16,663 nucleotides of DNA from a virus (IMGVR_UViG_2690315994_000023); one strand, 5' to 3'. Positions 741 through 16,663 are shown, counted from the stretch's first letter. A program made the numbers and translations. Notes: a model not told the origin generated them from the sequence alone.

Positions 741-779
741 TGGGGAGGCCGCAGGGTTGCACATGGTGCGGTTCTCTAT

Positions 780-1568: not shown

Positions 1569-1569
1569 A

Positions 1570-1767: not shown

Positions 1768-1770
1768 CAA

Positions 1771-2022
1771 ATGACTCAAAAACACAGAGACAGAACAGAG
1801 CCAAAATATAAAGCGTTAGACATGACAGAGCACGCCTTAAAGGTGGCAATCAGAACGATAGACCGCCACGCGGGGGAAGGATACGCGAAAGCACATCCCG
1901 AACTGATAAGCGCATTCATGACCACGACGGCGGCAAATTTTGCCACGCTGACAGAGCGGGAGATTGCGGAAGCTGAACAGGTGACAACCATCAACGTTAA
2001 AACCGGAGAGGTGGAATCATGA
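1771..2022 (+). CDS. Hypothetical protein (83 aa), translationally coupled to ssb
   Basis: ATG at 1771 is preceded by GAGGTGGG (Shine-Dalgarno-like). The track ORF 1639..2022 extends upstream through the iterons, and that extension is probably not coding. The stop overlaps the ssb start (ATGA at 2019..2022). Confidence 0.45.
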   Translation: MTQKHRDRTEPKYKALDMTEHALKVAIRTIDRHAGEGYAKAHPELISAFMTTTAANFATLTEREIAEAEQVTTINVKTGEVES

Positions 2023-2429
2023 CAGCACAGATAGCAGCTTACGGGCGGCTGGTGGACGACCCGCAGGTAAAACAGACCAGCAAGGGCACACCAATGACGC
2101 TGGCACGTATGGCGGTATCGTTGCCATGTAGTCAGGCGCAGGATGGGCAGGCTACGTTATGGCTATCGGTCATCGCATTTGGTAAGCAGGCCGACTTCCT
2201 GGCTAAACATCAAAAAGGCGATGTTGCCAGCGTATCCGGCACGATGCAGGTCAGCCAGTGGACCGGACAGAACGGGGAAACGCGGCAGGGTTATCAGGTT
2301 ATTGCAGACAGCGTAATCAGTGCCCGTGCGGCACGTCCTGGCGGGAACAGACGCAAAACCACAGGCACACAGGGTAATCAGCCACCAGCGGGAGGCGATG
2401 ACCCTTACGGTGACGGTATTCCGTTCTGA
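2019..2429 (+). CDS. ssb: Single-stranded DNA-binding protein (SSB, OB-fold)
   Basis: The OB-fold region (LWLSVIAFGKQADFLAKHQKGDVASVSGTMQVSQWTGQNGETRQGYQVIADSV) parallels the bacterial SSB core. It is followed by a Gly/Pro/Gln-rich linker and an acidic tail ending DDPYGDGIPF, matching the SSB C-terminal D-D-D-I-P-F type tip. Confidence 0.85.
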   Translation: MTAQIAAYGRLVDDPQVKQTSKGTPMTLARMAVSLPCSQAQDGQATLWLSVIAFGKQADFLAKHQKGDVASVSGTMQVSQWTGQNGETRQGYQVIADSVISARAARPGGNRRKTTGTQGNQPPAGGDDPYGDGIPF

Positions 2430-2439
2430 GGGGGTGGCG

Positions 2440-2712
2440 ATGGTACATGACCGCATAGCGGAAGAACTCGAGGCGAAAGGCTTTTACCGGAGGGCGGCGG
2501 CGCGATGGGGTGAAGTCATGCTGCTGGTGGAGACAGACAAGGAACGGCATCAGGTTACGATGCGACGGCTGGAATGTTCCAGGAAGGCACAGAAGCCACC
2601 GGAGCCGCCGGATAACTTCGGAGACCTGAGAAAGGCAGTAGATCGCACTTATGCTGAAATGGGTATAGATGGTGTAAGCGATGAAATATGGCGAAATTAC
2701 CAGGACAGATAA
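2440..2712 (+). CDS. PerC-family small transcriptional regulator (probable)
   Basis: A 90-aa protein starting at ATG 2440 (Shine-Dalgarno GAGGGGGTGG). The N-terminal IAEELEAKGFYRRAAARWGEVM matches, from memory, the PerC-family signature (AE.LE.KG..RRAA.RW). The track ORF 2320..2712 is an upstream extension overlapping ssb. Confidence 0.5.
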   Translation: MVHDRIAEELEAKGFYRRAAARWGEVMLLVETDKERHQVTMRRLECSRKAQKPPEPPDNFGDLRKAVDRTYAEMGIDGVSDEIWRNYQDR

Positions 2713-2718
2713 TCACAC

Positions 2719-2741
2719 AGCCGGAGCAATCCGGCTTTTTG
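2719..2741 (+). terminator. Rho-independent terminator after the PerC-like gene
   Basis: AGCCGGA-gcaa-TCCGGCT hairpin followed by TTTTTG. Confidence 0.7.
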
Positions 2742-2860
2742 TCATGTTTTGTAAATTATTTGTTCGTGGTTGTTCCACGTTGCTCGCTGACCGGAACGGC
2801 ATATTTTACCCGACCTGAATCATGATTATTCTCGCCCGTGGTGCCAGGACGCTGGGGCCA

Positions 2861-2910
2861 TTTTCCCGCCTGTTAATGTGCTCGCCAATATTCATTACCA
2901 GGCGGGAAAA
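2861..2910. promoter_or_regulatory. Perfect 12-bp inverted repeat (TTTTCCCGCCTG ... CAGGCGGGAAAA) with 26-bp spacer, upstream of the capsid gene
   Basis: Arms at 2861..2872 and 2899..2910 are exact reverse complements. The repeat lies in the ~285-bp leader between the PerC-like gene and the capsid operon. It has T upstream and A downstream on both strands, so it is not a terminator. Confidence 0.4.
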
Positions 2911-2999
2911 CGATCGGTGCGATTACTGATTTCCTTATGAAAAACGGTTGAGTGTTTGCCGCGTCCTGGAGTTCCTTACTTAACCCCAGGACTTTTTTT

Positions 3000-4157
3000 A
3001 TGCCGAGAATAATCGAATTACGCCAGCAGAAAACCGCCATTAAAAATCAGATGCGCGACATGCTGGAGAACGCGGAAAAAGAAAACCGCAGTCTTAACGA
3101 TGCTGAGGGCGCAAAATTTGACGAATTACGCGCTAAAGCTGAATCCCTCGATAAAGACATTTCCCGCCTTGAAGCCATTGCAGACGAAGAGCGCAGCAAG
3201 CCAGGTAAAAGCAGCCAGACCACTGACCCCGCAGAATTACGCAACTACATTCTGACAGGTGAAACCCGCGCATTAAGTACAGGCGTTCCCGCTGATGGTG
3301 GTTATACCGTTATCCCCGAACTGAACACCGAAATCATGCGAATGCTGACGGATGAATCCACCATGCGCCGCATCTGTACCGTGAAGAAAATCAGCAGCAA
3401 CGAGTTTAAGCAGCTTGTTTCCGCTGGCGGTGCGACCGTTAACCACGGTGAAGAGGGTAAGACACGCGAACAGACCAGCACCCCGCAGATTAACGAGGTG
3501 AGCATTAAGCTGTATCCGGTCTATGCGTACCCGCGCACCACACAGGAAATCGTGGATTTTTCCGATGTGGACATCCTTTCATGGCTGACGGGTGAGATTG
3601 GCGACACCTTCACGGAAACCGAAGAAAGCGATCTGGTTGTGGGCGACGGTGACAAAAAAGCAAAAGGCTTTTTATCCGTACCCCGTGCAGAGAAGAACGA
3701 CAAAGAGCGTGATTTTGGTACGTTACAGGTAATTAAACCTTCCGAATCTCTGGCGTGGACATCTGCGGACCCGCTGATCGACCTGAAATTTGCATTACAT
3801 AAAAAATACCGCAAAAACGCGGTCTGGGTGGTTAACTCCACGACGGCCGCAAAACTTCAGAAGGTGAAGAACGCGAACGGTGATTACATCTGGCGCGACC
3901 GTTTACAGGCGGGTGATCCTGATACGTTGCTGGGCCTTCCGGTCGAATATCTGGAGTTTATGCCTGATAACGTTATTGCCCTGGGTGACTTCAAACGCGG
4001 TTACTACATTGTTGATCACGAAACAGGTGTTCGCACCAGACCGGACAACCTCACAGAGCCGGGCTTCATCAAAATTTTCACGCAGAAATATTTAGGCGGT
4101 GGCGTGGTGGATTCGAACGCGATCAAGATTCTGGAACTGCCACAGGACGACGATTAA
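3000..4157 (+). CDS. Major capsid protein, HK97 family, with N-terminal scaffold-like delta domain
   Basis: ATG at 3000 with AGGA 8 nt upstream. The N-terminal ~100 aa are coiled-coil and charged (IIELRQQKTAIKNQMRDMLENAEKENRSLNDAEGAKFDELRAKAESL), typical of the HK97 delta domain. Length and C-terminal region fit the HK97 capsid fold. Context is protease and portal immediately downstream. Confidence 0.88.
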   Translation: MPRIIELRQQKTAIKNQMRDMLENAEKENRSLNDAEGAKFDELRAKAESLDKDISRLEAIADEERSKPGKSSQTTDPAELRNYILTGETRALSTGVPADGGYTVIPELNTEIMRMLTDESTMRRICTVKKISSNEFKQLVSAGGATVNHGEEGKTREQTSTPQINEVSIKLYPVYAYPRTTQEIVDFSDVDILSWLTGEIGDTFTETEESDLVVGDGDKKAKGFLSVPRAEKNDKERDFGTLQVIKPSESLAWTSADPLIDLKFALHKKYRKNAVWVVNSTTAAKLQKVKNANGDYIWRDRLQAGDPDTLLGLPVEYLEFMPDNVIALGDFKRGYYIVDHETGVRTRPDNLTEPGFIKIFTQKYLGGGVVDSNAIKILELPQDDD

Positions 4158-4167
4158 CAGCATACAG

Positions 4168-4188
4168 AAGGGGCTTAAAAGCCCCTTT
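4168..4188 (+). terminator. Hairpin plus T-run between capsid and protease genes (possible attenuator)
   Basis: AAGGGGC-ttaaaa-GCCCCTT followed by TAGTGTTTT. Confidence 0.4.
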
Positions 4189-4211
4189 AGTGTTTTATGG
4201 GTGAAAAAATT

Positions 4212-4769
4212 ATGAAGAGTATGGAAATCCGGTCATCGGAAATCACCACCAGCGCCAGCAACACGCTTACAGGCTACGTTGTTCGCTGGGATAACCTTTC
4301 AGAGCTGCTATGGGGGGAGTTTTACGAAAAATTCCAGCGGGGAGCGTTTACTGAATGGCTTGCAGCGGGTAATGACGTTCGCGGCCTGTATGAGCATGAC
4401 CACAGCATGTTACTGGGGCGCACCCGTTCCGGCACGCTGAAACTGGAAGAGGACGACACAGGGTTACGCTTTGAACTGACCCCACCGGATACCAGTACAG
4501 GGCGGGACGTTATCGAACTGGTTAAACGAGGTGATATATCCGGCATGAGCTTTGGCTTTCGCTCCCGTAAGGATGTATGGGATACCACAACAGATCCATG
4601 CGTGCGCACCGTGCTGGTGGCGGAACTGTACGAAATTACCGTTACATCCGTACCGGCTTACCCTGATTCCGGCGTGGAGCTGGCCCGCCGCTCCCTGTAC
4701 GAGCAGCACCCCGAAAAAATGCCGCGTGCGGATAATCGCCGCTGGTGGGCGGATTTAGCGGGGGTGTGA
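4212..4769 (+). CDS. Prohead maturation protease, HK97 family
   Basis: Motifs GYVVRWDN, LYEHD, LGRTRSGTLKLEEDDTGLRFE, GDISGMSFGF and ELYEITVTSVPAYPDS fit HK97-type prohead proteases. ATG 4212 has GGTGA upstream; the alternative ATG at 4197 has no ribosome binding site. Confidence 0.85.
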   Translation: MKSMEIRSSEITTSASNTLTGYVVRWDNLSELLWGEFYEKFQRGAFTEWLAAGNDVRGLYEHDHSMLLGRTRSGTLKLEEDDTGLRFELTPPDTSTGRDVIELVKRGDISGMSFGFRSRKDVWDTTTDPCVRTVLVAELYEITVTSVPAYPDSGVELARRSLYEQHPEKMPRADNRRWWADLAGV

Positions 4770-4770
4770 T

Positions 4771-5982
4771 ATGTGGCCTTTCAGAAGAAAAAAAGAGCAG
4801 CGCAGCATGACGCTTGATGAGTTTATGGCGCTGGCCGGCACATCGAACACGGGGGCGGGTGAGTACGTATCATCGGGGACAGCGGAATCACTGCCCGCCG
4901 TCATGAACGCCGTGACGGTCATCTCTGAGGCGGTGGCTACCATGCCGTGTTACCTGTACCTGGTACGCAATGAGAAGGGGAAGGAGGCCCGCGAGTGGCT
5001 TGATTCTCATCCGGTCGATCACATCCTCAACGAGCGCCCGAACGCGTGGCAAACCCCCTACCAGTTTAAGCGAATGATGATCCGCCACTGCCTGTTAAAC
5101 GGTAATGCTTATGCGGTGATTCGGTGGGGGCGTGATGGTTTTCCGGTGGCTTTACATCCTTACCCGCCGCAGTCGGTGAACGTGGAGCAGACAGGTGAGC
5201 ATAACTGGCGCTACTGCATCACTGACGCCTACACCGGAAACACCCGCAACTATTTACCGTGGGAGGTTCTCCACCTTCGTTACTCCACGGATGACGGTTT
5301 TATGGGGCGCTCACCTGTAACCATCTGCCGCGAATCGCTGGGGCTTGGGCTGGCCCAACAACGCCACGGCGCGAGCGTGATGCGTGATGGCATGATGGCG
5401 GCAGGGGTTATCACGTCAGGCGAATGGCTGGACGGCGTGAAGGGCAAACAGGCATTAGCCGCACTGGAACGCTACAAAGGGGCCAGAAACGCCGGAAAAA
5501 CGCCCATCCTTGAAGGGGGTATGAGCTATCAGCAGCTGGGCATGAGTAATCAGGATGCTGAATGGCTGGCCTCCCGTCGCTTCACCATTGAAGACATCGC
5601 CCGAATGTTCAACGTCTCGCCGATTTTTTTGCAGGAATACAGCAACAGCACCTACAGCAATTTCAGCGAGGCAAGCCGCGCATTTCTCACCATGACGATG
5701 CGCCCGTGGCTGGCGAACTTTGAGCAGCAGATAAAAAACGCCCTGCTGGTGGCCTCACCTGTACCTGGTATCCGGTATCAGGTGGAGTTTGACAGCGCGG
5801 ACCTGTTACGGGCCACACCTGGCGAACGCTTTGCCACCTATGAACGCGGCATCAAATCCGGCGTTATGTGCCCGAACGAAGCCCGCGAACGTGAAGGGCT
5901 GTCCCCGCGTGATGGTGGTGATGAGTTCAGCCAGGCATGGAAACAGGAAGTAAAAATCAGCGAGGGAGAAAAACCGGAATGA
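4771..5982 (+). CDS. Portal protein, HK97 family
   Basis: A 403-aa protein starting 2 nt after the protease stop. Its length, composition and position in the head module fit phage portal proteins. Confidence 0.85.
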   Translation: MWPFRRKKEQRSMTLDEFMALAGTSNTGAGEYVSSGTAESLPAVMNAVTVISEAVATMPCYLYLVRNEKGKEAREWLDSHPVDHILNERPNAWQTPYQFKRMMIRHCLLNGNAYAVIRWGRDGFPVALHPYPPQSVNVEQTGEHNWRYCITDAYTGNTRNYLPWEVLHLRYSTDDGFMGRSPVTICRESLGLGLAQQRHGASVMRDGMMAAGVITSGEWLDGVKGKQALAALERYKGARNAGKTPILEGGMSYQQLGMSNQDAEWLASRRFTIEDIARMFNVSPIFLQEYSNSTYSNFSEASRAFLTMTMRPWLANFEQQIKNALLVASPVPGIRYQVEFDSADLLRATPGERFATYERGIKSGVMCPNEAREREGLSPRDGGDEFSQAWKQEVKISEGEKPE

Positions 5983-6317
5983 ACATAGGGCGACTGCGTG
6001 ACAGGGTAACGATTCAGACCCTGAAACAGACCAGGGATATAACCGGCGAAATACTCGAAACGTGGGTGGACGGTCACACACTCTGGGCAAGCGTGAACAT
6101 GATCAGCAGCAAGGAGGCCATTTCATCGGGTGCAGAACTGGCGACTGGAACGGTAAGGATATGGATACGCTACAGGAAGGACATCAACGCCACCAGCCGG
6201 ATAAAGGTCAATACGGGGCCGCTGGCGGGGCGTGTACTGAATATCATCGGGCAGCCGCTGCCGGATGCCGCCAGGACACGCCTTGAAATTCTTTGTCGTG
6301 AGGGCGCGGAAAAATGA
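5979..6317 (+). CDS. Head-closure / head-tail joining protein (SPP1 gp16-like)
   Basis: ATG overlaps the portal stop (ATGA). A ~112-aa protein with RDRVTIQ ... GTVRIWIRYRKDI ... RVLNIIG motifs typical of phage head-tail joining proteins. Confidence 0.7.
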   Translation: MNIGRLRDRVTIQTLKQTRDITGEILETWVDGHTLWASVNMISSKEAISSGAELATGTVRIWIRYRKDINATSRIKVNTGPLAGRVLNIIGQPLPDAARTRLEILCREGAEK

Positions 6318-6610
6318 CAGAAGAACTTATCACCCTGGAAGAAGTGAAACTCCATTGCCGCATCGATGGCGACGAGGAAGACCAGTTAATCAGCGGATAC
6401 ATTGCCGCATCGCTTGAGGCGTGCCAGATACATATAGGCAGGCGCTTTGATGACGGGCTGGAGTTCACGCCAGCCATAAAGATTGGCTGCATGATGTTTA
6501 TCGCTCACCTGTACGAGAATCGCCAGCTGGTAGCGGATAACGCAAAAACGCGCGTACCCATGACGATTGGCGCGCTCTGGACGGCTTACCGTGATGTGGG
6601 GGTGTACTGA
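6314..6610 (+). CDS. Head-tail connector / DNA-packaging adaptor (gp6-like)
   Basis: ATG overlaps the previous stop. The N-terminal LITLEEVKLHCRIDGDEEDQLI and the IAHLYENR motif match gp6-like head-tail connector proteins. Confidence 0.7.
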   Translation: MTEELITLEEVKLHCRIDGDEEDQLISGYIAASLEACQIHIGRRFDDGLEFTPAIKIGCMMFIAHLYENRQLVADNAKTRVPMTIGALWTAYRDVGVY

Positions 6611-7050
6611 TGCCGTGGCAACCATTAAGACGATGCACAGAACCAGGCTGTAACAGGCGCGTGAAGTCCGGCAAGTGTGAGGAGCACAGGCGGGCGGCAT
6701 GGCGTGCAGAGGATGCCAGACGAGGACACCGCCGCGCGCGTGGGTACTCCAGACAGTGGGACAAATACCGCGCCATGTATCTGAGTAAAAACCCGTTATG
6801 CGTGCGATGCCTTGAGAAGGGGATATATACGCCCGCCGTGGTGGTGGATCACATTATCCCGATTAATGGCGGTGATGATGTTCTCTTCTGGCCCGAATGG
6901 AACCATCAACCATTGTGCCAGGCGTGTCATAACCAGAAAACGAAATGGCTTGATCCGGCAACAAAAAGCAAGCGTGCCGCAGGTGGATTTCATGAAGAGG
7001 AAGAACGGGCCGCTAACCGCAATAACTGGATGTATGACGCTGATGAATGA
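6610..7050 (+). CDS. HNH endonuclease (phage packaging-associated)
   Basis: Cys-rich zinc-binding motifs (CTEPGC..., CVRC) and the HNH signature VDHIIP ... NHQPLCQACHNQKT. It sits immediately upstream of terS/terL, as in cos-type HK97-like phages. Confidence 0.85.
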   Translation: MPWQPLRRCTEPGCNRRVKSGKCEEHRRAAWRAEDARRGHRRARGYSRQWDKYRAMYLSKNPLCVRCLEKGIYTPAVVVDHIIPINGGDDVLFWPEWNHQPLCQACHNQKTKWLDPATKSKRAAGGFHEEEERAANRNNWMYDADE

Positions 7051-7216
7051 GCGGGAACAAAACCGCCTTATCCGTGGACTTATAAGGCAGCGTGACGCAT
7101 GGAAGACACAGGAAACAGGGCATAAAGATAAAGCGTCAGGACGCGCAGAACGCATCACAGCGAAGCGATTAACCGACCGTGACCGCGAGGTTATGGAATG
7201 TTTCCGCAATCGCTGA
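7034..7216 (+). CDS. Hypothetical small basic protein (about 60 aa)
   Basis: ATG at 7034 (or 7043) in a frame overlapping the HNH 3' end. The track ORF 6812..7216 is an implausible upstream extension inside HNH. Confidence 0.3.
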   Translation: MTLMNEREQNRLIRGLIRQRDAWKTQETGHKDKASGRAERITAKRLTDRDREVMECFRNR

Positions 7217-7227
7217 TGAGGCTGTAT

Positions 7228-7272
7228 GACGGGGTGGGGGGCGTTTTCAGGACAAACCCGACCCCGCCGGGC
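7228..7272. other. Candidate cos / terminase recognition region (G-run and C-run imperfect dyad)
   Basis: GACGGGGTGGGGGGCG, a 13-bp spacer, then CCCGACCCCGCCGGGC, in the only sizeable intergenic gap between HNH and terS. Confidence 0.25.
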
Positions 7273-7339
7273 ACCGAACGCCTCCTCAAATTTTTATGCA
7301 CGGGAATTTTTTGAAAAATAATCTGGCGAAAAAATAAGC

Positions 7340-7696
7340 ATGGCAAGACCACCGAAAGCCCCCGCCTACCTGGATGATATCGCCGTGAAGCAGTGGCGGG
7401 AAAAATCGCGGCAGCTTGCGGAACGGGGAGACCTTACCCCCGCCGACTGGAGTAATCTGGAACTGTATTGTGTCAACTACTCCATTTACCGGAAAGCCGT
7501 TGCAGACCTTGCGGCGCGCGGGTTCAGCATTGTTAACAGTCAGGGCGGCGAGAGCAGAAACCCCGCATTAAGCGCAAAATCCGACGCTGAAAGAGTGATG
7601 ATAAAAATGGCCTCCTTGCTCGGTTTTGACCCGATAAGCCGCCGTAAAAATCCACCGGAAACAGAAGAAGAGGACGAGCTTGACCGCCTGGAATAA
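7340..7696 (+). CDS. terS: Terminase small subunit, P27 family
   Basis: A 118-aa protein directly upstream of and overlapping terL. The N-terminal PKAPAYLDDIAVKQWREKSRQLAERGDLTPADWSNLELYCVNYSIYRKA matches P27-family small terminases. Confidence 0.75.
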   Translation: MARPPKAPAYLDDIAVKQWREKSRQLAERGDLTPADWSNLELYCVNYSIYRKAVADLAARGFSIVNSQGGESRNPALSAKSDAERVMIKMASLLGFDPISRRKNPPETEEEDELDRLE

Positions 7697-9341
7697 GTAC
7701 GCAGAAGACGTAAAAACGGGCAAAATTCCGGCCTGTAAACGGCTGAAACAGGCCGTTAAACGGTACTTTTCGGACCTTGAAAGCCCCCTTTACACGTTCG
7801 ATCGTGAGGTTGTGGAGCGGTTTATTGCCTTTTCCAGGGTGTGCCCGCACGTAAAAGGCGCAATGCGCGGTAGCCCCATTGAGCTGGAGCCGTGGCAGCA
7901 GTTCGCCTTTGCGTGCATCCTCGGCTTTAAGGTTAAGGCCACCGGACGGCGCAAATACACGAGCGCCTTTATCGAAGTGCCGCGCAAAAATGCGAAATCC
8001 ACGACCGCCGCGATTCTGGCTAACTGGTTTTTGATTATGGAGAACGGTCAGCAGGATATCTACACCGCAGCGGTGAGCCGTGACCAGGCGCGGATCGTCT
8101 TTGATGATGCGCGTCAGATGTGCCTTTTATCCCGACCGTTACGCAGGCGGGTGAATATTCAGGCGCATAAGGTGATACACCCGAAAAGCAACAGCCTGTT
8201 AAAGCCGCTGGCAGCAAAAGCGGCAACCATTGAAGGTACAAACCCGAGTCTTGCCATTGTGGATGAATATCACCTGCACCCTGACAACGGGGTTTATTCC
8301 GCGCTTGAACTGGGAATGGGGGCGCGTCCGGAGGGGCTGTTATTTGCCATCACCACATCGGGGAGCAACGTTGTTTCAGCCTGTAAACAACACTACGACT
8401 ATTGCTGCCAGATACTGGATGGTGAAGAGGTGAACGAATCCATGTTCGTGCTGATTTACGAGCTGGATGATGAAAGCGAGGTTGACGATCCGGCGATGTG
8501 GATAAAGGCGAATCCAAATATCGATGTTTCCGTCGATCGTGAAAAACTGGCCTCAACCATCCAGAAAGCGCGGGGTATTCCGTCGCAGTGGGTGGAAATG
8601 CTCACCAAGCGATTCAATATCTGGTGTCAGGGGGCTACGCCGTGGATGGGTAACGGTGCATGGGCGGAGTGCGCCGGAACGTTCACGGAGGAAGATTTAC
8701 ACGGCCAGGAGTGTTACGCGGGGCTGGATTTATCATCCACAAGCGATATTTCCAGCGTGTGCTATGCCTTTCCGGTCGGTAAAACCATTATGCTGGTTTC
8801 CCGTCATTATCTGCCGGAGTTCCAGCTACAGAACCCCGCCAATAAAAACCGCGCTGTCTATCGTCAGTGGGCTAAAGCGGGCTGGATACGCACAACGCCT
8901 GGCGACTGCATTGATTACGACCGGATCAGAGATGACATCATGCAGGACGCGGAGAAATTTAATATCAGGCTGGTGGGCTTTGATACGTGGAACGCCACGC
9001 ATCTCAGAACGCAATTACAGGGGGCAGGTTTTGAGGTGGAGCCGTTCCCGCAAACCTACCTCAGATTCAGTCCGGCGGCGAAATCGTTCGAAGTTTTTGT
9101 TAACCGCAGGGTGATTGTGCATCGTGGCGATCCGGTGTTGTCCTGGTCGATGAGTAACGTTGTGATGCAGAGTGACGCGAACGCCAATATCAAGCCGAAC
9201 AAGAAAAAATCACCGAACAAGATAGACCCGAGCGTGGCGGCACTGATGGCGTTTGGCACATTCCAGGCAGAGCATGAGGATTTTGAATTCGATATGAGCG
9301 ATAGCCATAAGCAGCGACTTGCCGAATTTACCGGGATTTGA
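7680..9341 (+). CDS. terL: Terminase large subunit
   Basis: A 553-aa protein with a Walker A-like segment (EVPRKNAKST), a Walker B-like stretch (LAIVDEYH) and a C-terminal nuclease-like region. The start is uncertain: TTG at 7680, overlapping the terS 3' end. Confidence 0.88.
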   Translation: MTAWNKYAEDVKTGKIPACKRLKQAVKRYFSDLESPLYTFDREVVERFIAFSRVCPHVKGAMRGSPIELEPWQQFAFACILGFKVKATGRRKYTSAFIEVPRKNAKSTTAAILANWFLIMENGQQDIYTAAVSRDQARIVFDDARQMCLLSRPLRRRVNIQAHKVIHPKSNSLLKPLAAKAATIEGTNPSLAIVDEYHLHPDNGVYSALELGMGARPEGLLFAITTSGSNVVSACKQHYDYCCQILDGEEVNESMFVLIYELDDESEVDDPAMWIKANPNIDVSVDREKLASTIQKARGIPSQWVEMLTKRFNIWCQGATPWMGNGAWAECAGTFTEEDLHGQECYAGLDLSSTSDISSVCYAFPVGKTIMLVSRHYLPEFQLQNPANKNRAVYRQWAKAGWIRTTPGDCIDYDRIRDDIMQDAEKFNIRLVGFDTWNATHLRTQLQGAGFEVEPFPQTYLRFSPAAKSFEVFVNRRVIVHRGDPVLSWSMSNVVMQSDANANIKPNKKKSPNKIDPSVAALMAFGTFQAEHEDFEFDMSDSHKQRLAEFTGI

Positions 9342-9343
9342 AT

Positions 9344-9535
9344 ATGCTCAAACACAAGAAAATTGAGTCTGTGATCGACGAAATGGCACGTCAATTAGGC
9401 CATGAACTTAACGGGCAGGATAAGCTGGTAATCCGCACTAAAACAGCTATGGTGTTGGCCGCTAAACAGCGGTACCGTCAGCGCATGGAAGCGCCACCCT
9501 ATCAGTGGCGAAAGCCAGATAAATTAAGGCGTTGA
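9344..9535 (+). CDS. Hypothetical small protein (63 aa), last gene of the packaging operon
   Basis: ATG 9344 lies 3 nt after the terL stop, and a strong terminator follows. Confidence 0.4.
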   Translation: MLKHKKIESVIDEMARQLGHELNGQDKLVIRTKTAMVLAAKQRYRQRMEAPPYQWRKPDKLRR

Positions 9536-9556
9536 AAGAGGTTCATCCCCCTACAA

Positions 9557-9588
9557 AGCACCAGTATTGTTCTGGTGCTTTTTTGTTT
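9557..9588 (+). terminator. Rho-independent terminator at the end of island 1
   Basis: Perfect 8-bp stem AGCACCAG / CTGGTGCT with a 7-nt loop, followed by TTTTTTGTTTGTT. Confidence 0.8.
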
Positions 9589-9601
9589 GTTCAGAAAAAG
9601 C

Positions 9602-9625
9602 TGTATAAACATTTGTATAAACATT
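9602..9625. repeat. Perfect tandem direct repeat, 2 x TGTATAAACATT
   Basis: Copies at 9602..9613 and 9614..9625, between two terminators in the island junction. Confidence 0.6.
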
Positions 9626-9632
9626 AATAAAA

Positions 9633-9662
9633 AAGGCGCTTCCCCATGCCGAGTAGCGCCTT
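9633..9662. terminator. Bidirectional-type terminator hairpin (A-run, stem, T-run)
   Basis: AAAAAAGGCGCT, a 14-nt loop, then AGCGCCTTTTT. Confidence 0.6.
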
Positions 9663-9873
9663 TTTAATCAAGCAGTTAGCTAAATTGAATTAGTTCATGC
9701 CGTATTGTAAAATACAGAGTCATTATACGTAATTTATTATCACTCTAGATAATTTGTATTCATCATAAATAATTGATGCAGAACGAGATATTTATTTTTT
9801 ATTGGCTCGCATTGTATCATCAGTTATCAGTTACTCCCTGCATACAGTTGTCAAAAAGGTTGTCATTAACTCT

Positions 9874-11109
9874 ATGGCCGAAAATAAACTCTCAGATGTT
9901 CAATTGCGTGCGTTAACCCGCAAAGTCATCGAAAAACCTTTTGATGTTGCTGACGGTGGCAGCCTTTCTGTTCGCGTTACACCATCAAGGCGCAAAATCC
10001 TTGATGGCGAGAAGAGACCGGCCAATAACATCCAATGGTTGTTCCGTTATAAGAATAAGCATAAAAGCGCCAATACTTTGACGCTAGTGCTGGGCAAGTA
10101 TCCTGCCTTATCTCTTGCTGAGGCGAGGGTGAAACGCGACCAATGCAAACGGTGGCTTGCTCATAATCTAGATCCTAAAGACCAGTTTGACCAAGAGTCA
10201 GCAAAAACCATGAAACCTGTCACTATCAGGGAAGCATTGGAACGCTGGATTAATGAGTACGCGGCGGAAAACCGGGTCAACTTTGAAAGGCATAGACGCC
10301 AATTCGAAAGACATATTTATCCTTTCATCGGCGAATTGCCACTTGAACAGTGCTCTAAAGCAAGATGGATGGAGACATTTAGCAGAATCAAAAAAGTCGC
10401 GCCGGTAGCAAGCGGCTACATATTAGGTAACTGCAAGCAGGCGTTGATTCACAACCGCAGGCTGCACGATGTTTACAGTGATGCGCTGGAGGATATCAAA
10501 GTTACTGATGTTGGAAGAAAGCAGGCAAAACGTGATCGTGTTTTAACTTCTGAAGAACTTAGTGGCCTTTGGAATGCGCTAAAAAGCGAATATGCGTTTC
10601 TACCTTACTACACCGCGCTTTTAAAATTGCTAATAGTGTTTGGTGCAAGAACACAAGAAATTCGTCTTTCGACATGGTCGGAATGGAACGTGAAAGAATG
10701 GATTTGGACAGTTCCGCGAGAACATAGCAAGGGTGGGGAGAAAATCATCAGACCCGTGCCTGAATCTATACAGCCATTTATTTTACAGCTACGCCAAAAT
10801 CATCTTGATAGCGGAATGCTGCTTGGTGAAATGAAGAAACCCGAAGCTGTCAGCCAGTGGGGGCGTATCTTATACAGGCGATTAGAGCATTCAACGCCGT
10901 GGACGTTGCATGACCTGCGCCGCACTTTTGCCACCAGTCTAAATAACTTGGGGATAGCCCCGCATGTGGTTGAACAGTTGCTGGGCCACTCAATGCCAGG
11001 AGTGATGGCGGTGTACAACCGTAGCCAGTACATCCCGGAAAAACGGTTAGCCTTGGACAAATGGATAAAATATTTAGAAAAAATAAACCTTTTAAAATCA
11101 GATAATTAA
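9874..11109 (+). CDS. int: Tyrosine recombinase / integrase, P4 type
   Basis: An N-terminal arm-binding-like region (LSVRVTPSRRKILDGEKRPANNIQWLFRY) and a C-terminal catalytic region with HDLRRTFATSL and LLGHS...AVYNRSQY (tyrosine nucleophile). ATG 9874 is preferred over the track's TTG at 9802. Confidence 0.88.
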   Translation: MAENKLSDVQLRALTRKVIEKPFDVADGGSLSVRVTPSRRKILDGEKRPANNIQWLFRYKNKHKSANTLTLVLGKYPALSLAEARVKRDQCKRWLAHNLDPKDQFDQESAKTMKPVTIREALERWINEYAAENRVNFERHRRQFERHIYPFIGELPLEQCSKARWMETFSRIKKVAPVASGYILGNCKQALIHNRRLHDVYSDALEDIKVTDVGRKQAKRDRVLTSEELSGLWNALKSEYAFLPYYTALLKLLIVFGARTQEIRLSTWSEWNVKEWIWTVPREHSKGGEKIIRPVPESIQPFILQLRQNHLDSGMLLGEMKKPEAVSQWGRILYRRLEHSTPWTLHDLRRTFATSLNNLGIAPHVVEQLLGHSMPGVMAVYNRSQYIPEKRLALDKWIKYLEKINLLKSDN

Positions 11110-11218
11110 AAATTGATGATTATATAGAGTTATGTAGCGTTATTTGCAGTTAAGTTTATGAATTTAAAGGGTATTTACTGCTGATACAATTTGAGTATTA
11201 TTGTCATGTAGTAATAAA

Positions 11219-11243
11219 AAGCCCCCAGCAGAACTGAGGGCTT
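11219..11243 (-). terminator. Hairpin followed by a T-run only on the minus strand
   Basis: AAGCCC-c-CAG loop CTG-a-GGGCTT. The + strand has AATAAAAA upstream, so the U-run is on the minus-strand transcript, and no T-run follows on the + strand. Confidence 0.35.
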
Positions 11244-11403
11244 GAATAAGGCGGGGATCGGTTCACGTCGCCAAACAGAAAACCGAACCCCTTAATACCA
11301 AAAAGCCGGTGAAGGCTGTAATGGTCGCGTTCTTTGTTAACGCAACATAATCATAAATCATTACAGACCACATATCCACCGGCCATGTTTTGAGGGCCGT
11401 AAG

Positions 11404-11583
11404 ATGGAATTACTGACTGCTAAGCAAGTCACAACACTAACAACATTATCCCGCATGACTATCTGGCGCTATATCCAGGCTGGCACGTTTCCTAATTGCA
11501 TAAAATTAGGGCCAAAACGCGTGGCCTGGCGGCGCAAAGATGTTATGGCGTGGCTTGAAAGCCGCCAGCCAGTACAGCGCTGA
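11404..11583 (+). CDS. alpA: AlpA-family (MerR-like HTH) prophage transcriptional regulator
   Basis: A 59-aa ORF, below the track cutoff. LLTAKQVTTLTTLSRMTIWRYIQAGTFPNCIKLGPKRVAWRRKDVMAWLESRQ matches the AlpA helix-turn-helix pattern. It sits directly downstream of int, as in P4-like elements and PICIs. Confidence 0.8.
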   Translation: MELLTAKQVTTLTTLSRMTIWRYIQAGTFPNCIKLGPKRVAWRRKDVMAWLESRQPVQR

Positions 11584-11591
11584 GGTGGCTT

Positions 11592-11873
11592 ATGAAGAAA
11601 ACAACCGTAAATCAGGCTATCAGTCGCTATAACAGCCTGTTGCGTAACCCACAGCGCCAGTTAACCGTTGGCGAACTTACCGCCCAGCGTATGGCGGCAG
11701 CACAATTATTGTTGCAAGCATGCATTCGCGAAGGTGTAAACCGCCCGTGGACTATTGTTTCACGTCACGCCGCTATGGCTGATAGCCTGGTGCCGTTTCG
11801 CATCAGCGATTCTGAATCATGGGCGATGTATCTGGAGTTAAAACGCGGGGTGCGATATGAGAAACGCGCCTAA
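11592..11873 (+). CDS. Hypothetical protein (93 aa), translationally coupled to replicase 2
   Basis: ATG 11592 follows the GAGGTGG Shine-Dalgarno, and the 3' end overlaps the replicase start by 17 nt. Confidence 0.5.
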   Translation: MKKTTVNQAISRYNSLLRNPQRQLTVGELTAQRMAAAQLLLQACIREGVNRPWTIVSRHAAMADSLVPFRISDSESWAMYLELKRGVRYEKRA

Positions 11874-13545
11874 CGTTAAGCTATTACCTAAAGACCCTTT
11901 TACGGAAGCAATTATTTTTGCCGGTTCTGACGCTTGGAGCCATGCCAAGGGCTGGGAAGAAGGAATGGGTAAACAAGTTGCCGGTGACACTACTCCTCCT
12001 GTCTATCTTGGGCCAAGACAACTGGATGATTTAGATAATCTACGAATTATCGACGATGGTCGCCGGTCTGCGCGGGTATATCTGGCTGGTGATATTAAGC
12101 AACTTCAAATCAGCACTATTGCTGACAAGCTGGCAGTGGCTGGAGTTAAGGAAGCCCGTTTATTTAAAGGCATTACTGACCGTGAACCGGAAAAATGGAA
12201 CATGGACAGGCTTAGAGACGCCGCCCTACGCGGTGAAAGCCTGGTGGGCATGCTGCGCAAAGAAGAACGAGCAACCGCCGCAGCAACTGTAAAAGACATT
12301 CACGATATGGCTCCTGTATTAATGACAACCTGGCCAAATATTGGAAGCAATGGCCAGCCTTTAAACACACGCCCTAATGTTGAACGTCTATTAGATAACT
12401 ACAGCATTTCTGCAAAATATAATGAGATTAGCAAGGACGTTGAGGTTTTAGTACCTGGCGTTAGTGGCGGTTCAGATGCTCGCGATAACTGCGCTGTGAG
12501 TGAAATTTTAAGCCTCGCCGCACTGAACCGGTTACCAATGAGTAATATTGAAGGTCATATCAAAACTATCGCTGTGCGCAATACTTATAATCCTGTCAGG
12601 GATTTCATCAATCAACGTGAATGGGATGGACGAAGCCGATTTGCAGACCTGCTGAATACTATCAGCACGCCAGATGACTACAGTCGCGATCTGCTGGCCA
12701 TGCTGGTGCGTCGTTGGTTGCTGTCTGCCGTGGCGGCTGCTTACTTAGAAGCGGGTTTCTGGTCCAAAGGCGTGCTGGTTTTCCAGGGCGAGCAGTCACT
12801 GGGTAAAACAGCATGGTTTAAAGCGCTTCTGCCCCCTGACAATCGCAACCTGGTTAAGGTGGGAGCAACTATTGACCCCGGCAATAAAGACAGCGTGGCC
12901 AGCGCAATTAGTCACTGGCTTGTTGAGCTAGGCGAATTGGATGCGACGTTTCGCAAGGCGGATATTGCCAAGCTCAAAGCATTTATCAGCCAGGACCGTG
13001 ATGACCTGCGCCGCCCTTATGACCGGCTTGAATCGAAGTACCAGCGCCGCACCGTGTTTTTTGCGTCAGTGAACCCGAAACACTTCCTGGCGGATGACAC
13101 CGGGAACGTGCGCTGGTGGACCATTCCTGTAACTGCCGTTAACTACGAGCATGGCATAGACACACAACAATTATGGGCCGAAGTTCTTTCCTGGTTTGAA
13201 GCAGGTGAACGCTGGTGGCTGGATCGTGATGAAGAAGCCATGCTGGAAGTAGTGAACGAACAGCACGGGCAAACTGACCCGATTGAAGAAATGATATTGG
13301 CGCGTTTTGATTGGAACAGTGATCGCCTGGCTGCATATATAGAAATGACTGCAACGGATGTTCTGTTGTCTATTGGGCAGGATCGGCCAACAAAATCCCA
13401 GGCAACGCAGTGCGGTAACATTCTGCGAAAACTGACTGGAAGGGATGCACGTAGAACAAGTAAAGGGCGTTTTTACCTAATGCCACCGAAAGTTTTTGGA
13501 CAGCAAGACCATAGCTATTTTGATGGGCCTAACCGCCAGTTTTGA
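11857..13545 (+). CDS. Replication initiator: conserved N-domain + P4-alpha/VirE-like P-loop NTPase (primase-helicase type)
   Basis: The N-terminal ~105 aa are homologous to those of ORF 168..740. The central and C-terminal part has Walker A GEQSLGKTAWFKAL and downstream motifs (LVELGELD, RTVFFASVNP) of the P4-alpha / D5 / VirE-type superfamily-3-like NTPase found in satellite primases. Confidence 0.8.
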   Translation: MRNAPNVKLLPKDPFTEAIIFAGSDAWSHAKGWEEGMGKQVAGDTTPPVYLGPRQLDDLDNLRIIDDGRRSARVYLAGDIKQLQISTIADKLAVAGVKEARLFKGITDREPEKWNMDRLRDAALRGESLVGMLRKEERATAAATVKDIHDMAPVLMTTWPNIGSNGQPLNTRPNVERLLDNYSISAKYNEISKDVEVLVPGVSGGSDARDNCAVSEILSLAALNRLPMSNIEGHIKTIAVRNTYNPVRDFINQREWDGRSRFADLLNTISTPDDYSRDLLAMLVRRWLLSAVAAAYLEAGFWSKGVLVFQGEQSLGKTAWFKALLPPDNRNLVKVGATIDPGNKDSVASAISHWLVELGELDATFRKADIAKLKAFISQDRDDLRRPYDRLESKYQRRTVFFASVNPKHFLADDTGNVRWWTIPVTAVNYEHGIDTQQLWAEVLSWFEAGERWWLDRDEEAMLEVVNEQHGQTDPIEEMILARFDWNSDRLAAYIEMTATDVLLSIGQDRPTKSQATQCGNILRKLTGRDARRTSKGRFYLMPPKVFGQQDHSYFDGPNRQF

Positions 13546-13554
13546 GGTGATACT

Positions 13555-13779
13555 ATGAGTTATCGCGTATATATCATTGCTTTTGACCCGGAACACGGCA
13601 CCTACACCGAAACCGAAATCATGGAAGGTTTCGCCACTGAACAGGAAGCGGTAGACCATGCTCGCAATAGGCTGCCAGAGGTGCAGCAGGAACTGGCCAA
13701 GTTGGGTGAAAACCTGCTATGCAGCTACCGCATAAGGGTAGTGGATTCCGCTGAAATCTTGCCGTTTCTCCGCTCATAA
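13555..13779 (+). CDS. Hypothetical protein (74 aa)
   Basis: ATG 13555 follows the GAGGTGA Shine-Dalgarno, and a terminator lies downstream. Confidence 0.45.
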   Translation: MSYRVYIIAFDPEHGTYTETEIMEGFATEQEAVDHARNRLPEVQQELAKLGENLLCSYRIRVVDSAEILPFLRS

Positions 13780-13802
13780 TATCACAACGGTTGTTACCCA
13801 TT

Positions 13803-13834
13803 GCCCTGGCGAATGCCGGGGCTTTTTTTATTTT
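13803..13834 (+). terminator. Rho-independent terminator
   Basis: GCCCTGGC-gaat-GCCGGGGC hairpin followed by TTTTTTTATTTT. Confidence 0.7.
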
Positions 13835-13848
13835 CAAAGTGACGCCTA

Positions 13849-14151
13849 GGTGTCATTAATTTATAAGGTGTCATGGTAGGTGTCATTGTTCTCAAGCCAT
13901 AACCCGCAAGGGTTGCGACATTACTAATGACACCTATGACACCTATGACAGCATTTTTAAAGAAAATAACGACCACTGTAATAATGTAACAGTGGTCGTT
14001 ATACTTTATAGAAATGGGTGTCATGGTGTCACAGGTGTCATTCATTACAGTATCTTGTTTGTATTTTTCTTTAATAATCAGCGTGTTTCCCGCTATGACA
14101 CCTAATGACACCTTTCCAACATAACGCCGTCATGGTGACATTAGGTGTCAT
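13849..14151. repeat. Iteron array, putative origin of replication of island 2
   Basis: GGTGTCAT at 13849, 13867, 13879, 14017, 14034 and 14144. Its reverse complement ATGACACC at 13927, 13936, 14095 and 14105. Variants GGTGTCAC at 14025, GGTGACAT at 14134, and a partial at 13945. The array has an AT-rich centre. Confidence 0.65.
13966..14002. repeat. Perfect 14-bp inverted repeat (ATAACGACCACTGT / ACAGTGGTCGTTAT) with 9-bp AT spacer, at the centre of the iteron array
   Basis: Exact reverse-complement arms at 13966..13979 and 13989..14002. Confidence 0.6.
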
Positions 14152-14545
14152 CGCCATCTGCTGCCAAAAAAGTCAAGGTACTTCCGAGGGGGGTACAGCC
14201 TGCGGGGGCATTGGTCCCGCGTAATTCGCGTTGTGCGTGCCCCTACAAAACTCACTTTATGATTACGTCAAGTAAATCAATCATTTATGTGAATCCTATC
14301 AAAGCACTGGAACCATAATTGCGAGATTGCAAAATAAAGCGAACACGTTTTACACACGCTGAATTGTAAAGATGTGTAAATATCGATTACGCCGGATTAT
14401 GCCTGGTTATTTGCAAGTATTCATGGTTATAAGTTACTGATTTTACATTAAAAAGCTCACATTGTGGCTATTGTGTTCGGCCTGGTTACTGTATATCTTT
14501 AAGTCATTCCAGACGATTTATTGCACAACAACCGGAGCATTTTTA

Positions 14546-15430
14546 ATGAACGTTTTATCTCAACTTATCAACGACGCGTTGAACCACCAGGGCGGCCACA
14601 TTCGCACTGATGGCAACGGTGACATTACTCAATTCATCCCTGTGGAACCTGCAGCAGTTCGCTACCTGTCCATGAATGACGTGCTGACCCCGAAAGGCGG
14701 CAAGCAGACCACCTTCAACGCTGTTCTGGCTGAACGTTCACTGGTGGCACAGGCAGGCGCTGAAATCATCCGCATCCCTGGCCCGATGACCACGCCTCCG
14801 ACTGGCAACACCGGCGCAACGACTGGCCGCGAAGTGGCTGACCGCTTCGTTGTCGTTCGCCCTGGTGCGTTCGCCAAAGTGGCTGACGGCGAAGAAATCA
14901 CCATGAGCGGCCTGCCTTACCTGGTATCAGCGTTCAACCACAACAACGCACCGGCTTACGGCGTGGGCTACACCCTTAGCCGCAAGCAGATGAAACACGA
15001 CTTCGCAGACGATACCACGCTGGAAGTGGTCAACACCGCCATTGAACGCGGAATTGCTGACCTGGCTGATTTCGTACTGCTGAACCACCTGGAAACCGCA
15101 GCGGAAACGCTGGCCAGCCCGTCATTCACCGCAGTGGCGCAGAAGATTGCAGCCAAAAACCTGCGCTTTGATGAAGTTAAAGCCATTGTTGGCGGTGATT
15201 GCACCGGCCTGGAACTGCAAGACGGCGTTCTGCGTGCCTACGGTGTACGCGCTGAAATCAGCGGCCAGACTTCCAGCACAATCATTGGCGCTTTCGGCAA
15301 TGCAGCCGTTGCCCTGGATGATGAAATCCGCGTCACCGCCCGCCGCGTGCTGAATGGTGCCGTTGAAATCGTTGTGTGGGTGAACGCATCCGCACTGGTG
15401 CCTGACTCAACTATGTTCTGGAAGGCTTGA
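14546..15430 (+). CDS. Hypothetical protein (294 aa), Ala/Gly/Thr-rich, strongly optimised codon usage
   Basis: ATG 14546 has GGAG 7 nt upstream. Codon choice is heavily biased (CTG, CGC/CGT, GGC, ACC, AAC, TTC, GAA), unlike neighbouring genes. It has no signal peptide and no recognisable catalytic motif. Confidence 0.6.
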   Translation: MNVLSQLINDALNHQGGHIRTDGNGDITQFIPVEPAAVRYLSMNDVLTPKGGKQTTFNAVLAERSLVAQAGAEIIRIPGPMTTPPTGNTGATTGREVADRFVVVRPGAFAKVADGEEITMSGLPYLVSAFNHNNAPAYGVGYTLSRKQMKHDFADDTTLEVVNTAIERGIADLADFVLLNHLETAAETLASPSFTAVAQKIAAKNLRFDEVKAIVGGDCTGLELQDGVLRAYGVRAEISGQTSSTIIGAFGNAAVALDDEIRVTARRVLNGAVEIVVWVNASALVPDSTMFWKA

Positions 15431-15432
15431 TC

Positions 15433-15747
15433 ATGTGGTGGGGCAGCAAAAAAGCGGCAGCGGAGCGCGCTGCCCTGCCGGGTGAAATCCTGGCAGCTAT
15501 CGAAGGTGTGGCCATGTATGTGCGCCACGGTGATGAAAACACACCGCGCATCGTAGTGCAGCCGGTTGGCTGGTCAGGATTCATCTACAGCGATGACGCT
15601 GCTGAAAAATGGATTCGCAAGGCTTACCCGGAGCTTAAGCAGTACCAGATTGAACGCGCCGTGAATTACCTCGCTTCCCTGGTGCGCAGTCACTACCGCG
15701 AGCAGCGCCCGAAACAGAAGCGCGAAAGCTGGATGAACAGGTACTAA
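15433..15747 (+). CDS. Hypothetical protein (104 aa), translationally coupled to the upstream gene
   Basis: ATG 15433 starts 2 nt after the upstream TGA (TGATCATG). Confidence 0.5.
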   Translation: MWWGSKKAAAERAALPGEILAAIEGVAMYVRHGDENTPRIVVQPVGWSGFIYSDDAAEKWIRKAYPELKQYQIERAVNYLASLVRSHYREQRPKQKRESWMNRY

Positions 15748-15750
15748 GCC

Positions 15751-15915
15751 ATGAAACGACAAGAAACACGCCAGCACGTAACGGTACGCCTCGCCCCTGA
15801 CCTGGTGCGCCAGGTCGAAAGAGAGCAAGCCAAACTGGAACGCAGAACAGGCATCCGCCCTTCACGCAGCCAGGTGATTGAAAAGTTTCTGAGTAGCGGG
15901 CTGAACGGCAAATAA
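15751..15915 (+). CDS. Ribbon-helix-helix (CopG/Arc-like) DNA-binding protein, 54 aa
   Basis: Below the track cutoff. A predicted beta-strand VTVRLAP is followed by two helices (DLVRQVEREQAKLERRTG, SRSQVIEKFL), the classical ribbon-helix-helix layout. It starts 3 nt after the upstream stop. Confidence 0.55.
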   Translation: MKRQETRQHVTVRLAPDLVRQVEREQAKLERRTGIRPSRSQVIEKFLSSGLNGK

Positions 15916-16129
15916 TGGCCAAGAATACAGGTTTCACCGGTTCCCTGTGCCCCAAATAACCGGCCAAATTTAACCTTCATCGTTCCTCAGACGATGGATG
16001 CTGGAACCAGGTTGGTGGTCATCCTGGACGGTCAAAACCACCACTAATTCCACACCGGTTGCGCCGCACCTGTCACCTAAAAGCGCGCACTCACTTAATC
16101 ATCAACAACTATTGTTAGCGGCCAATACT

Positions 16130-16447
16130 ATGAAAAAACATGACCTGTACGAATCAATGAAAGAAGAAGCGCGTTTGATCCTTAGCGAAACAAAGCGTTT
16201 CCAAACCATTTCAGAGAAAAACCCTATCAGCTACGAAGCAGCCGACCTGCTGGCAAGCCTTCGCAACCGTTTAAACGCATTCGAACACATGACCGATGAA
16301 GCGGGCCGCATCATGCGTGACGAAGCGGAAAGCCACGCATCCGCCCTGGGACGCACGAAGTGGCAACCATCCAGCCGCATCAGTTCCGGTGAACGGGCCA
16401 AACGCCAGGCGGTGAAGCGCGGCGCTATCCTGGTACGGAGTGCATAA
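16130..16447 (+). CDS. Hypothetical charged, probably helical protein (105 aa)
   Basis: ATG 16130 is preferred. The track extension from 15998 is Ser/Thr/Pro/Trp-rich and low-complexity, so unlikely to be coding. Confidence 0.4.
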   Translation: MKKHDLYESMKEEARLILSETKRFQTISEKNPISYEAADLLASLRNRLNAFEHMTDEAGRIMRDEAESHASALGRTKWQPSSRISSGERAKRQAVKRGAILVRSA

Positions 16448-16456
16448 GGGGGCACC

Positions 16457-16663
16457 ATGCTGGACCGTATTCACACAAAACCGGAAGGAACAAACCCCTG
16501 GCCTGAACTGGTGGATATGGTCCTGCCAAAAGTTCTGGCGTGCAACACAGCGGAGGAAATGCAGAAACAGCGAGACTACCGCACCGAATGCGCCCTGCAA
16601 CTGGCCGCTGCCGCCTTGCGGGCAATCGGTGAACACACCCTTGCAGAAAATTTACTTAATTAA
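16457..16663 (+). CDS. Hypothetical protein (68 aa)
   Basis: ATG 16457 follows the AAGGGGG Shine-Dalgarno, with TAA at the window end. Confidence 0.4.
   Translation: MLDRIHTKPEGTNPWPELVDMVLPKVLACNTAEEMQKQRDYRTECALQLAAAALRAIGEHTLAENLLN

Follow-up and report, generated by a model that had tools for sequence, protein, structure and literature searches.

The ~340-bp gap at positions 9536-9873 between two islands is most probably a hybrid attachment site at the 3' end of fis, in which the attR of one satellite (island 1) is fused to the attL of a second (island 2), and in which a 12-bp tandem repeat provides arm sites for the island 1 integrase (Int). The analyzed DNA, hereafter the window, is a stretch of 16,663 nt corresponding to nt 1-16663 of contig CYBJ01000003.1 (GCA_001284825.1), labelled L018. 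Judged from alignments, the junction occupies the E. coli yhdJ-fis intergenic region. Part of it is present next to fis in every one of 5,426 complete E. coli genomes.

The initial annotation had offered two alternatives, an attR/attL hybrid of tandem satellites or integrase arm-type sites. Our analyses suggest that both are right at once, as the two halves of the junction match the attR of solitary island 1 and the attL of solitary island 2, and the 12-bp repeat, a candidate arm-type site, recurs in both arms of islands with the type-A integrase. The left half (to 9705) shows no difference from the attR found in six single capsid-forming PICIs (cf-PICIs) abutting fis (L013, L016, L017, and L019-L021), and the right half (9627-9880) shares 98-100% identity with the attL that solitary island 2 has next to yhdJ (L002/L012). 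These halves overlap in a copy of the fis terminator and in the core. In individual genomes, window 9300-9706 aligns to the terL...fis end of a single cf-PICI located between yhdJ and fis in strain QL57EC, and window 9627-9880 aligns to the boundary of yhdJ and the int leader of solitary island 2 in strain E62.

Island 2 occupies the site alone in at least 44 complete genomes, L002 and L009-L012 being examples of the solitary state, and its leader was found in 45 of the 5426 complete E. coli genomes. The type-A P' arm occurs in 4-15 of them. The reverse order, island 2 followed by a different cf-PICI, was detected in one complete genome, that of strain 2017.06.05CC (NZ_AP027790.1, L004). The occurrence of the islands both singly and in reverse order identifies the junction as the attR of island 1 fused to the attL of island 2, and runs against the refuting outcome named in the initial annotation, in which comparative genomics would show 1..16663 always moving as one unit. 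The exact junction was found in 0 of the 5426 complete E. coli genomes; an IMG/VR entry (L072) contains it at 99.993% identity. Of the three att sites of the tandem array, two (the junction and attR) are on the source contig, and we infer the third (attL) from a relative, L006.

The two islands and the layout of their junction

Window 1-9535 contains the replication and late half of a cf-PICI, island 1. Its genes encode a RepA-like AAA_25 protein, SSB, HK97 capsid, protease, portal, head-tail connectors, HNH, TerS, TerL, and a 63-aa ORF; the island 1 integrase lies off the source contig. Over positions 1-9307, island 1 shares 95.7% identity with islands of O157:H7 strains and 98.1% with a tqsA-integrated island of strain 2013C-4991 that has a different integrase. 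In the tqsA sister cf-PICI (L142, NZ_CP027355.1), homology breaks at 9307, 35 nt before the terL stop. This break, given the 98% identity of the body, indicates that an int-attP cassette including the small terminal ORF was swapped. That ORF, the last of island 1 (9344..9535, + strand, a called gene of the source contig), matches phrog_7271, a family of unknown function (E = 8e-47). Since homology to the sister island ends at 9307, the ORF travels with the att arm, and we assign it on this basis to a fis-type right-end module.

The RepA-like AAA_25 helicase gene (168-1568) is split by a C-to-T amber mutation (CAG to TAG) in the codon at 738-740, the sole difference in 1401 nt from the intact gene for the 466-aa protein in L016. 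Island 1 may thus be replication-defective, and perhaps immobile even if able to excise. Three copies of AAAAAGTGGGCA, spaced 83-85 nt, lie at 1565-1757, right after this gene, and may be the origin iterons of island 1.

Island 2 measures 9.3 kb and is an int-AlpA-VapE element. Its tyrosine integrase (9874..11109, + strand, 411 aa) has the domain pair PF13356 (Arm-DNA-bind_3) and PF00589, and is followed by an AlpA-type regulator (11404-11583; Phage_AlpA/HTH_17, phrog_66) and a VapE primase-helicase. Both islands have their own replication gene, and the N-termini of the two products are homologous. Dense direct and inverted ATGACACCT/GGTGTCAT repeats at 13877-14154, 3' of the VapE gene, are probably a replication origin or operator array of island 2. 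The last gene is preceded by five ORFs lacking Pfam and PHROG matches (14546-16663); it lies beyond the window (L018 16685-18958) and encodes a 757-aa tape-measure homologue (phrog_28, E = 3e-127; PF10145). It is unusual for a satellite to have a tape-measure gene while lacking capsid and terminase genes, and searching the literature for tape-measure genes in satellites gave nothing relevant.

The ends of the window, 1 and 16663, are database boundaries rather than biological ones. The left end is the first base of the source contig and falls within a DUF4222 gene, and the right end is that of the L072 entry, 22 nt 5' of the tape-measure gene. We also considered the window as a circularly permuted single 16.6-kb island with the junction as its attP. 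This was rejected: the termini do not overlap, no ORF runs across the window ends, and the two halves have separate replication genes.

The junction begins with an intrinsic terminator, T1 (9555..9590, + strand), identified by terminator scan and RNA folding. Its 10-bp stem (9555-9564/9572-9581) closes a 7-nt loop and is followed by the T-run TTTTTTGTTTGTT. The predicted RNA fold has a free energy of -14.8 kcal/mol (z = -4.7), and 0 of 200 shuffled sequences were as stable. A strong terminator had been placed here at 9557..9588, with hairpin coordinates off by 2-4 nt. T1 is kept in all type-A attR arms and is the predicted end of the island 1 packaging (late) operon. The second hairpin, T2 (AAAAAAGGCGCTTCCCCATGCCGAGTAGCGCCTTTTT, 9629-9665), had been described as bidirectional-type at 9633..9662. 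It has a U-run on both sides, and its predicted free energy is -22.6 kcal/mol on the - strand compared with -15.0 kcal/mol on the + strand, so it is truly bidirectional, with the minus strand stronger. A GC-rich stem-loop with a U-run, the hallmark of intrinsic terminators, is thus present in T1 on the + strand and in T2 on both strands. T2 is identical to the K-12 fis terminator over 37 nt, and from this identity we regard it as an island-borne copy with no fis gene to terminate here. The proposal that two terminators end the packaging operon therefore holds for T1 and fails for T2.

A second block common to both type-A arms (L006/L001), TATTGTTCYRGTG(C)TTTTTNTTTGTT, covers window 9566-9592 and comprises the 3' half of T1 with its T-run. 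Its local alignment score is 29, compared with 15.2 +/- 2.3 for shuffles, and the spacer between block and doubled motif is exactly 12 nt longer in one arm than in the other. The block may be an additional protein site or may have been left by an arm duplication.

The region between the core and int (9706..9873, + strand) is the P arm of island 2 and has 100% identity to the leader that the solitary element carries next to yhdJ. As annotated initially, it is an AT-rich integrase leader (29% GC, compared with 51% for the whole window), and the integrase starts about 200 bp beyond the second hairpin, with its ATG at 9874, 208 nt away. The initial annotation was also correct that no tRNA-like sequence is present: ARAGORN detected no tRNA or tmRNA in the window, ruling these out as the target. 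There is no tRNA at the junction because the integration target is the 3' end of fis. No Rfam family reached its gathering score within 9200-10200, and a known RNA family in the junction was dismissed because the only matches were sub-threshold sRNA hits caused by the hairpins.

The fis target and the crossover

The fis 3'-end target had been overlooked, as had the doubled motif of island 2 itself (9847-9870). The gene order yhdJ, island(s), fis is found in L001, L002, L004, and L018. We mapped the crossover by aligning the K-12 empty site between yhdJ and fis (attB) with attL, attR, and the junction, a comparison with an empty site that the initial annotation had recommended. The crossover is confined to AGTTCATGCCGTA, since the island-borne copies diverge outside it (e.g., TCA rather than TTA in QL57EC). 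The core of 13-16 nt corresponds to fis codons 95-98 (Tyr-Gly-Met-Asn) and the stop codon on the minus strand. Its 16-mer, TTAGTTCATGCCGTAT (9690..9705), is single-copy in the window and recurs at L018 19036-19051, the outer right boundary of island 2, abutting fis; a shared core repeat at an outer boundary, proposed as a check, is thus present. The reverse complement of window 9690-9704 equals the published identity block TACGGCATGAACTAA (PMC10111431), and the pattern TACGGCATGAACT(A/G)A occurs in reverse complement at both 9690-9704 and L018 19036-19050.

As the source contig begins inside island 1, the left boundary of this island is visible in the relatives L006 and L001 alone. In L006, which is from a different assembly and is 100% identical over the 737-nt overlap, the boundary reads yhdJ-terminator-core-CTGTCAG...int. 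Element-borne terminator copies are present at attR sites, so that fis receives a substitute 3' end and terminator from the island. A second core-like word, TTCATGCCGT, was observed in the P' arm of island 2 (L018 19014-19023), 26 nt left of the core.

Between T2 and the core is a perfect match to the IHF consensus, AATCAAGCAGTTA (9666..9678, + strand), a candidate bending site. The window has only two WATCAANNNNTTR matches, this one included, compared with 0.7 expected. Among 56 distinct left arms, 41 have an IHF-like match (at most one mismatch) at -23/-24 relative to the stop, kept partly through common descent of the fis 3'-UTR copies. A promoter-like sequence, TTGAAT-17-TAAAAT (9685..9713, + strand; consensus scan), spans the core and is speculative. 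Its -35 element comes from the left partner and its -10 element from the P arm of island 2. As the -35 element, the junction has TTGAAT, single-island attL has CTGAAT, and the reconstructed island 2 attP has TTGACT with an 18-nt spacer. Through such a core-spanning promoter, expression of island 2 int might depend on the recombination state.

Doubled motifs in the integration arms

The initial annotation reported an exact 2 x 12-bp tandem repeat between the hairpins, and we recovered it as two copies of TGTATAAACATT at 9602-9625 (+ strand). It is the sole exact 2x12 duplication in the window; ~1.1e-3 such duplications are expected by chance per window and 8e-5 within the junction. The type-A motif also occurs ~20 nt 5' of the type-A int ATG in L001 and L006, and hence in both type-A arms. 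When P and P' arms were compared by k-mers without bias, the doubled motif was the longest common word in three integrase types: TCTGTATAAACATT in type A, TGTGCAGTCAGTGGTGCAGTCA in type B, and GGTTGTCA in island 2.

We collected attR sites by scanning IMG/VR for the core, and 46 of them adjoin fis. In 45 of these 46, a 12-periodic doubled motif starts 86-90 nt (~88) left of the fis stop, against a background rate of 5e-4 per position. On the other side, the doubled motif starts +129/130 nt from the core, just 5' of int, in 25 of 29 P arms; the remaining four are all from island 2, where GTTGTCA starts at +142. The motif of island 2, GTTGTCAAAAAG GTTGTCATTAAC (9847..9870, + strand, 12-bp period), overlaps the int ribosome-binding site. 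It is short (7-8 nt, GTTGTCA x2), and its partner is GTTGTCAGTACGGTTGCAA at L018 18961-18979, in which the second P' half-site is an imperfect GTTGCAA. Compared with types A and B, this pair is shifted ~13 nt toward int relative to the core, with the spacing kept: the copies are 232 nt apart in the reconstructed island 2 attP and 233-234 nt apart in types A and B.

The motif sequences fall into several classes: TGTATAAACA, GTGCAGTCA, GTGTAGTCA, GTGTATCAC, GTGGGGTAC/GTGGGGCAC, TGTATAACA, and GTTGTCA. Within relatives, the two half-sites differ at 1-2 positions (e.g., TGTATAAACATC TGTATAAACATT), which indicates that the perfection of the repeat here is incidental, but its doubling is not. In one metagenomic contig (L094, IMG/VR 3300045988_131243, position 338, - strand), a type-B P' arm runs through the core directly into a type-B P arm. 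This contig could be either an excised attP or a homotypic tandem.

Two other functions for the repeat were tried and rejected. A LexA box was considered for CTGTATAAACAT, which does not fit CTG-N10-CAG, and the other motif classes are unlike it. A packaging or ori iteron is contradicted by the presence of the motif upstream of int and by island 2, which has no packaging module and carries its own doubled motif at equivalent positions.

All these integrases, including the island 2 Int and the type-A Int of L006, have the PF13356 Arm-DNA-bind_3 domain. The island 2 Int shares 53-55% identity overall, and 43-47% in its first 100 aa, with the other two integrase types at the fis site and has weak matches to the solved N-domains of CP4-like integrases, 3JU0 and 3JTZ. 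Median identity of Int N-domains is 99% for pairs with the same motif and 56% for pairs with different motifs, among few independent lineages. The motif sequence varies with the Int N-domain and not with AlpA, so the repeat is probably an integrase arm-type site. By this correlation, the two copies of TGTATAAACATT are probably the arm-type (P') site of the type-A integrase of island 1; the pairing of this Int with the junction motif is extrapolated from L006 and L001.

The junction could instead be the same hybrid att site with its doubled motif bound by AlpA/excisionase or another accessory protein, which we consider unlikely. AlpA-type proteins are excisionases and regulators (phrog_66). The binder of an analogous motif in helper-embedded PICIs (HE-PICIs) is left open in PMC10111431. 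Int and alpA are adjacent, and most co-variation cannot separate them. However, both arms contain the motif, which gives four co-oriented half-sites, the arrangement that an Int tetramer would be expected to use. Xis sites of the lambda type, by comparison, are confined to one arm. Discrimination between the two proteins comes mainly from one recombinant lineage, L140, Int and alpA being otherwise linked. Its AlpA is 95-98% identical to those of three islands with GTGCAGTCA (L068, L078, and L108), yet its motif is GTGTATCAC and its Int N-domain is just 57-60% identical to theirs. The retention of AlpA alongside a diverged Int N-domain and motif favours the Int arm-binding domain as the reader. 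That the repeat is a functionless duplication arising by chance or replication slippage is scarcely credible, although it has two copies only and lies in AT-rich DNA. The chance expectation is low, as given above, and different sequences are doubled at the same offset in nearly all attR sites and again 5' of int; these comparative data effectively refute such an origin.

Two further explanations concern the contig as a whole. A false join through the repeated fis terminator and core in a short-read draft is a highly improbable source of the junction. The assembly is a draft whose contig starts inside island 1, attL has a near-repeat of ~77 nt (9629-9705), and no complete E. coli genome among the 5426 has the exact junction. 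Against an artefact, the same contig joins the P' arm of island 2 to fis (L018 18959-19051), so island 1 cannot be fis-proximal and the order is self-consistent. Moreover, the flank 5-8 nt left of the core has the island-1 allele AAATTGAA and not the chromosomal AACCTGAA, the second database entry has the same junction, and both islands target the single fis gene and hence must be in tandem in some order, the reverse tandem being present in a finished genome. It is also very unlikely that 1-16663 is one composite element that moves as a unit, with the junction an internal relic. All genes are co-oriented and the arrangement recurs in two database entries, but elements of the island 1 type are solitary at fis in the six cases above, island 2 is solitary in its many complete genomes and precedes a cf-PICI in one, and the junction keeps a complete core and intact arms. 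The combined ~27 kb also exceeds the 10-15 kb reported for cf-PICIs.

Proposed recombination and comparison with known systems

We propose the following organization for the hybrid attR/attL site with Int-bound arms. T1 would stop the late operon of island 1, and the TGTATAAACATT half-sites beyond it would dock the island 1 integrase through its N-terminal arm-binding domains (P' arm). In a single-island lysogen, the T2 copy would replace the native fis terminator, itself displaced to attL. An IHF-like site follows T2 and may be used by IHF, and strand exchange would take place in the 13-16 nt core. The P arm of island 2 then ends with its own doubled motif (GTTGTCA x2), followed by the start of int. 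In the tandem state, fis would be terminated by the hairpin of island 2 (L018 18987-19011), and T1 together with the orphaned fis-terminator copy would insulate island 2 int from the late operon of island 1.

Since the core is shared and the arm motifs are private to one integrase, each Int could excise its own island while the other stays. For island 1, its attL (type-A P motif) would pair with the junction (type-A P' motif), leaving B-core-P(island 2). For island 2, the junction would pair with the fis-proximal attR. We infer such independent excision of each island, and Int rather than another protein as the binder of the motif. The order of arrival of the islands cannot be deduced because both histories yield the same junction.

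A broader reading, to which we give about even chances, is that at least six or seven Int lineages use one 13-nt fis core, each with a private doubled arm motif ~233 bp apart. If so, orthogonal arm codes would let satellites stack at one attB and each retain independent excision, with neither cross-excision nor fusion. The integration module, whose parts (P' arm-core-P arm-int) adjoin one another only in the circular form, would then be a swappable cassette, which would explain the homology break at 9307 relative to the tqsA sister island. The motif classes offer natural specificity variants for the study of DNA recognition by arm-binding domains, and the tandem offers a test of whether arm-site orthogonality keeps co-resident satellites independent. 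For annotation, the junction marks the end of island 1 and the start of island 2, accounts for the absence of a tRNA, and identifies the second hairpin as a displaced fis terminator.

PICIs at fis are well documented. Mageeney et al. (2023, NAR Genom Bioinform, PMC10111431) reported about 3,565 of them, with an identity block that extends into the fis terminator, cited experimental excision of the Klebsiella fis PICI Kpn47.16.fis within that block, and described two simple PICI/PICI tandems at fis, in which the att sites are three in number and related. Tandem fis PICIs are therefore already published, and the junction is a new instance of a known arrangement. Our islands share with these PICIs the fis 3'-end target with yhdJ opposite, the identity block, and an integrase followed by AlpA. 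Unlike the published tandems, the pair is heterotypic, consisting of a cf-PICI (type-A Int) and a VapE/tape-measure element of 9.3 kb, with only 55% identity between their integrases.

The same study described a doubled motif, tgTGTATTGCantgTGTATTGCa, in HE-PICIs, at distances of 81 bp (upstream) and 132 bp (downstream) from the attP centre, and called it unique to HE-PICIs and absent from fis PICI attPs (PMC10111431). The sole new point of our work is that fis PICIs carry doubled motifs as well, with the same architecture and lineage-specific sequences. As in HE-PICIs, the motif has a 12-bp period, two half-sites per copy, and two co-oriented copies flanking the crossover, at starts of ~-88 and +130 in fis PICIs compared with 81 and 132 bp. 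The integrases belong to a related clade, and the type-A half-site has TGTAT in common with the HE-PICI motif. However, the window contains TGTATAAACATT x2 and not tgTGTATTGCantgTGTATTGCa, and is not a member by sequence; the fis PICI target is a chromosomal gene and not a prophage late gene; and fis PICIs have at least six or seven motif classes on one shared core. The doubled 12-bp motif is a general feature of the integrase clade rather than specific to HE-PICIs.

cf-PICIs of the EcCIEDL933 family are reported to be 10-15 kb long (bioRxiv 10.1101/2022.09.08.507074). Island 1 resembles them in its full late module from HK97 capsid to TerL and differs in that its integration module is of the fis type, with a 98% identical sister in tqsA using another integrase. 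P4-like satellites have the same Int domain pair (PF13356 and PF00589) and an AlpA-type regulator but target tRNA genes; no tRNA is present at the junction, where integration is instead into a protein-coding gene at its 3' end.

The attP of phage lambda contains the arm-type sites P1, P2, and P'1-3, the IHF sites H1, H2, and H', and Xis sites. The fis satellites are similar in having a heterobivalent Int with an N-terminal arm-binding domain, tandem arm sites in both arms, and an AT-rich P arm, and the succession of core, candidate IHF site, and tandem arm sites resembles C'-H'-P'1-3. They differ from lambda in having two + two half-sites instead of two + three, and a terminator hairpin inside the P' arm. 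Lambda and HK022 have their arm sites in common and differ in core specificity. The fis satellites are the inverse, sharing the core and differing in their arm motifs.
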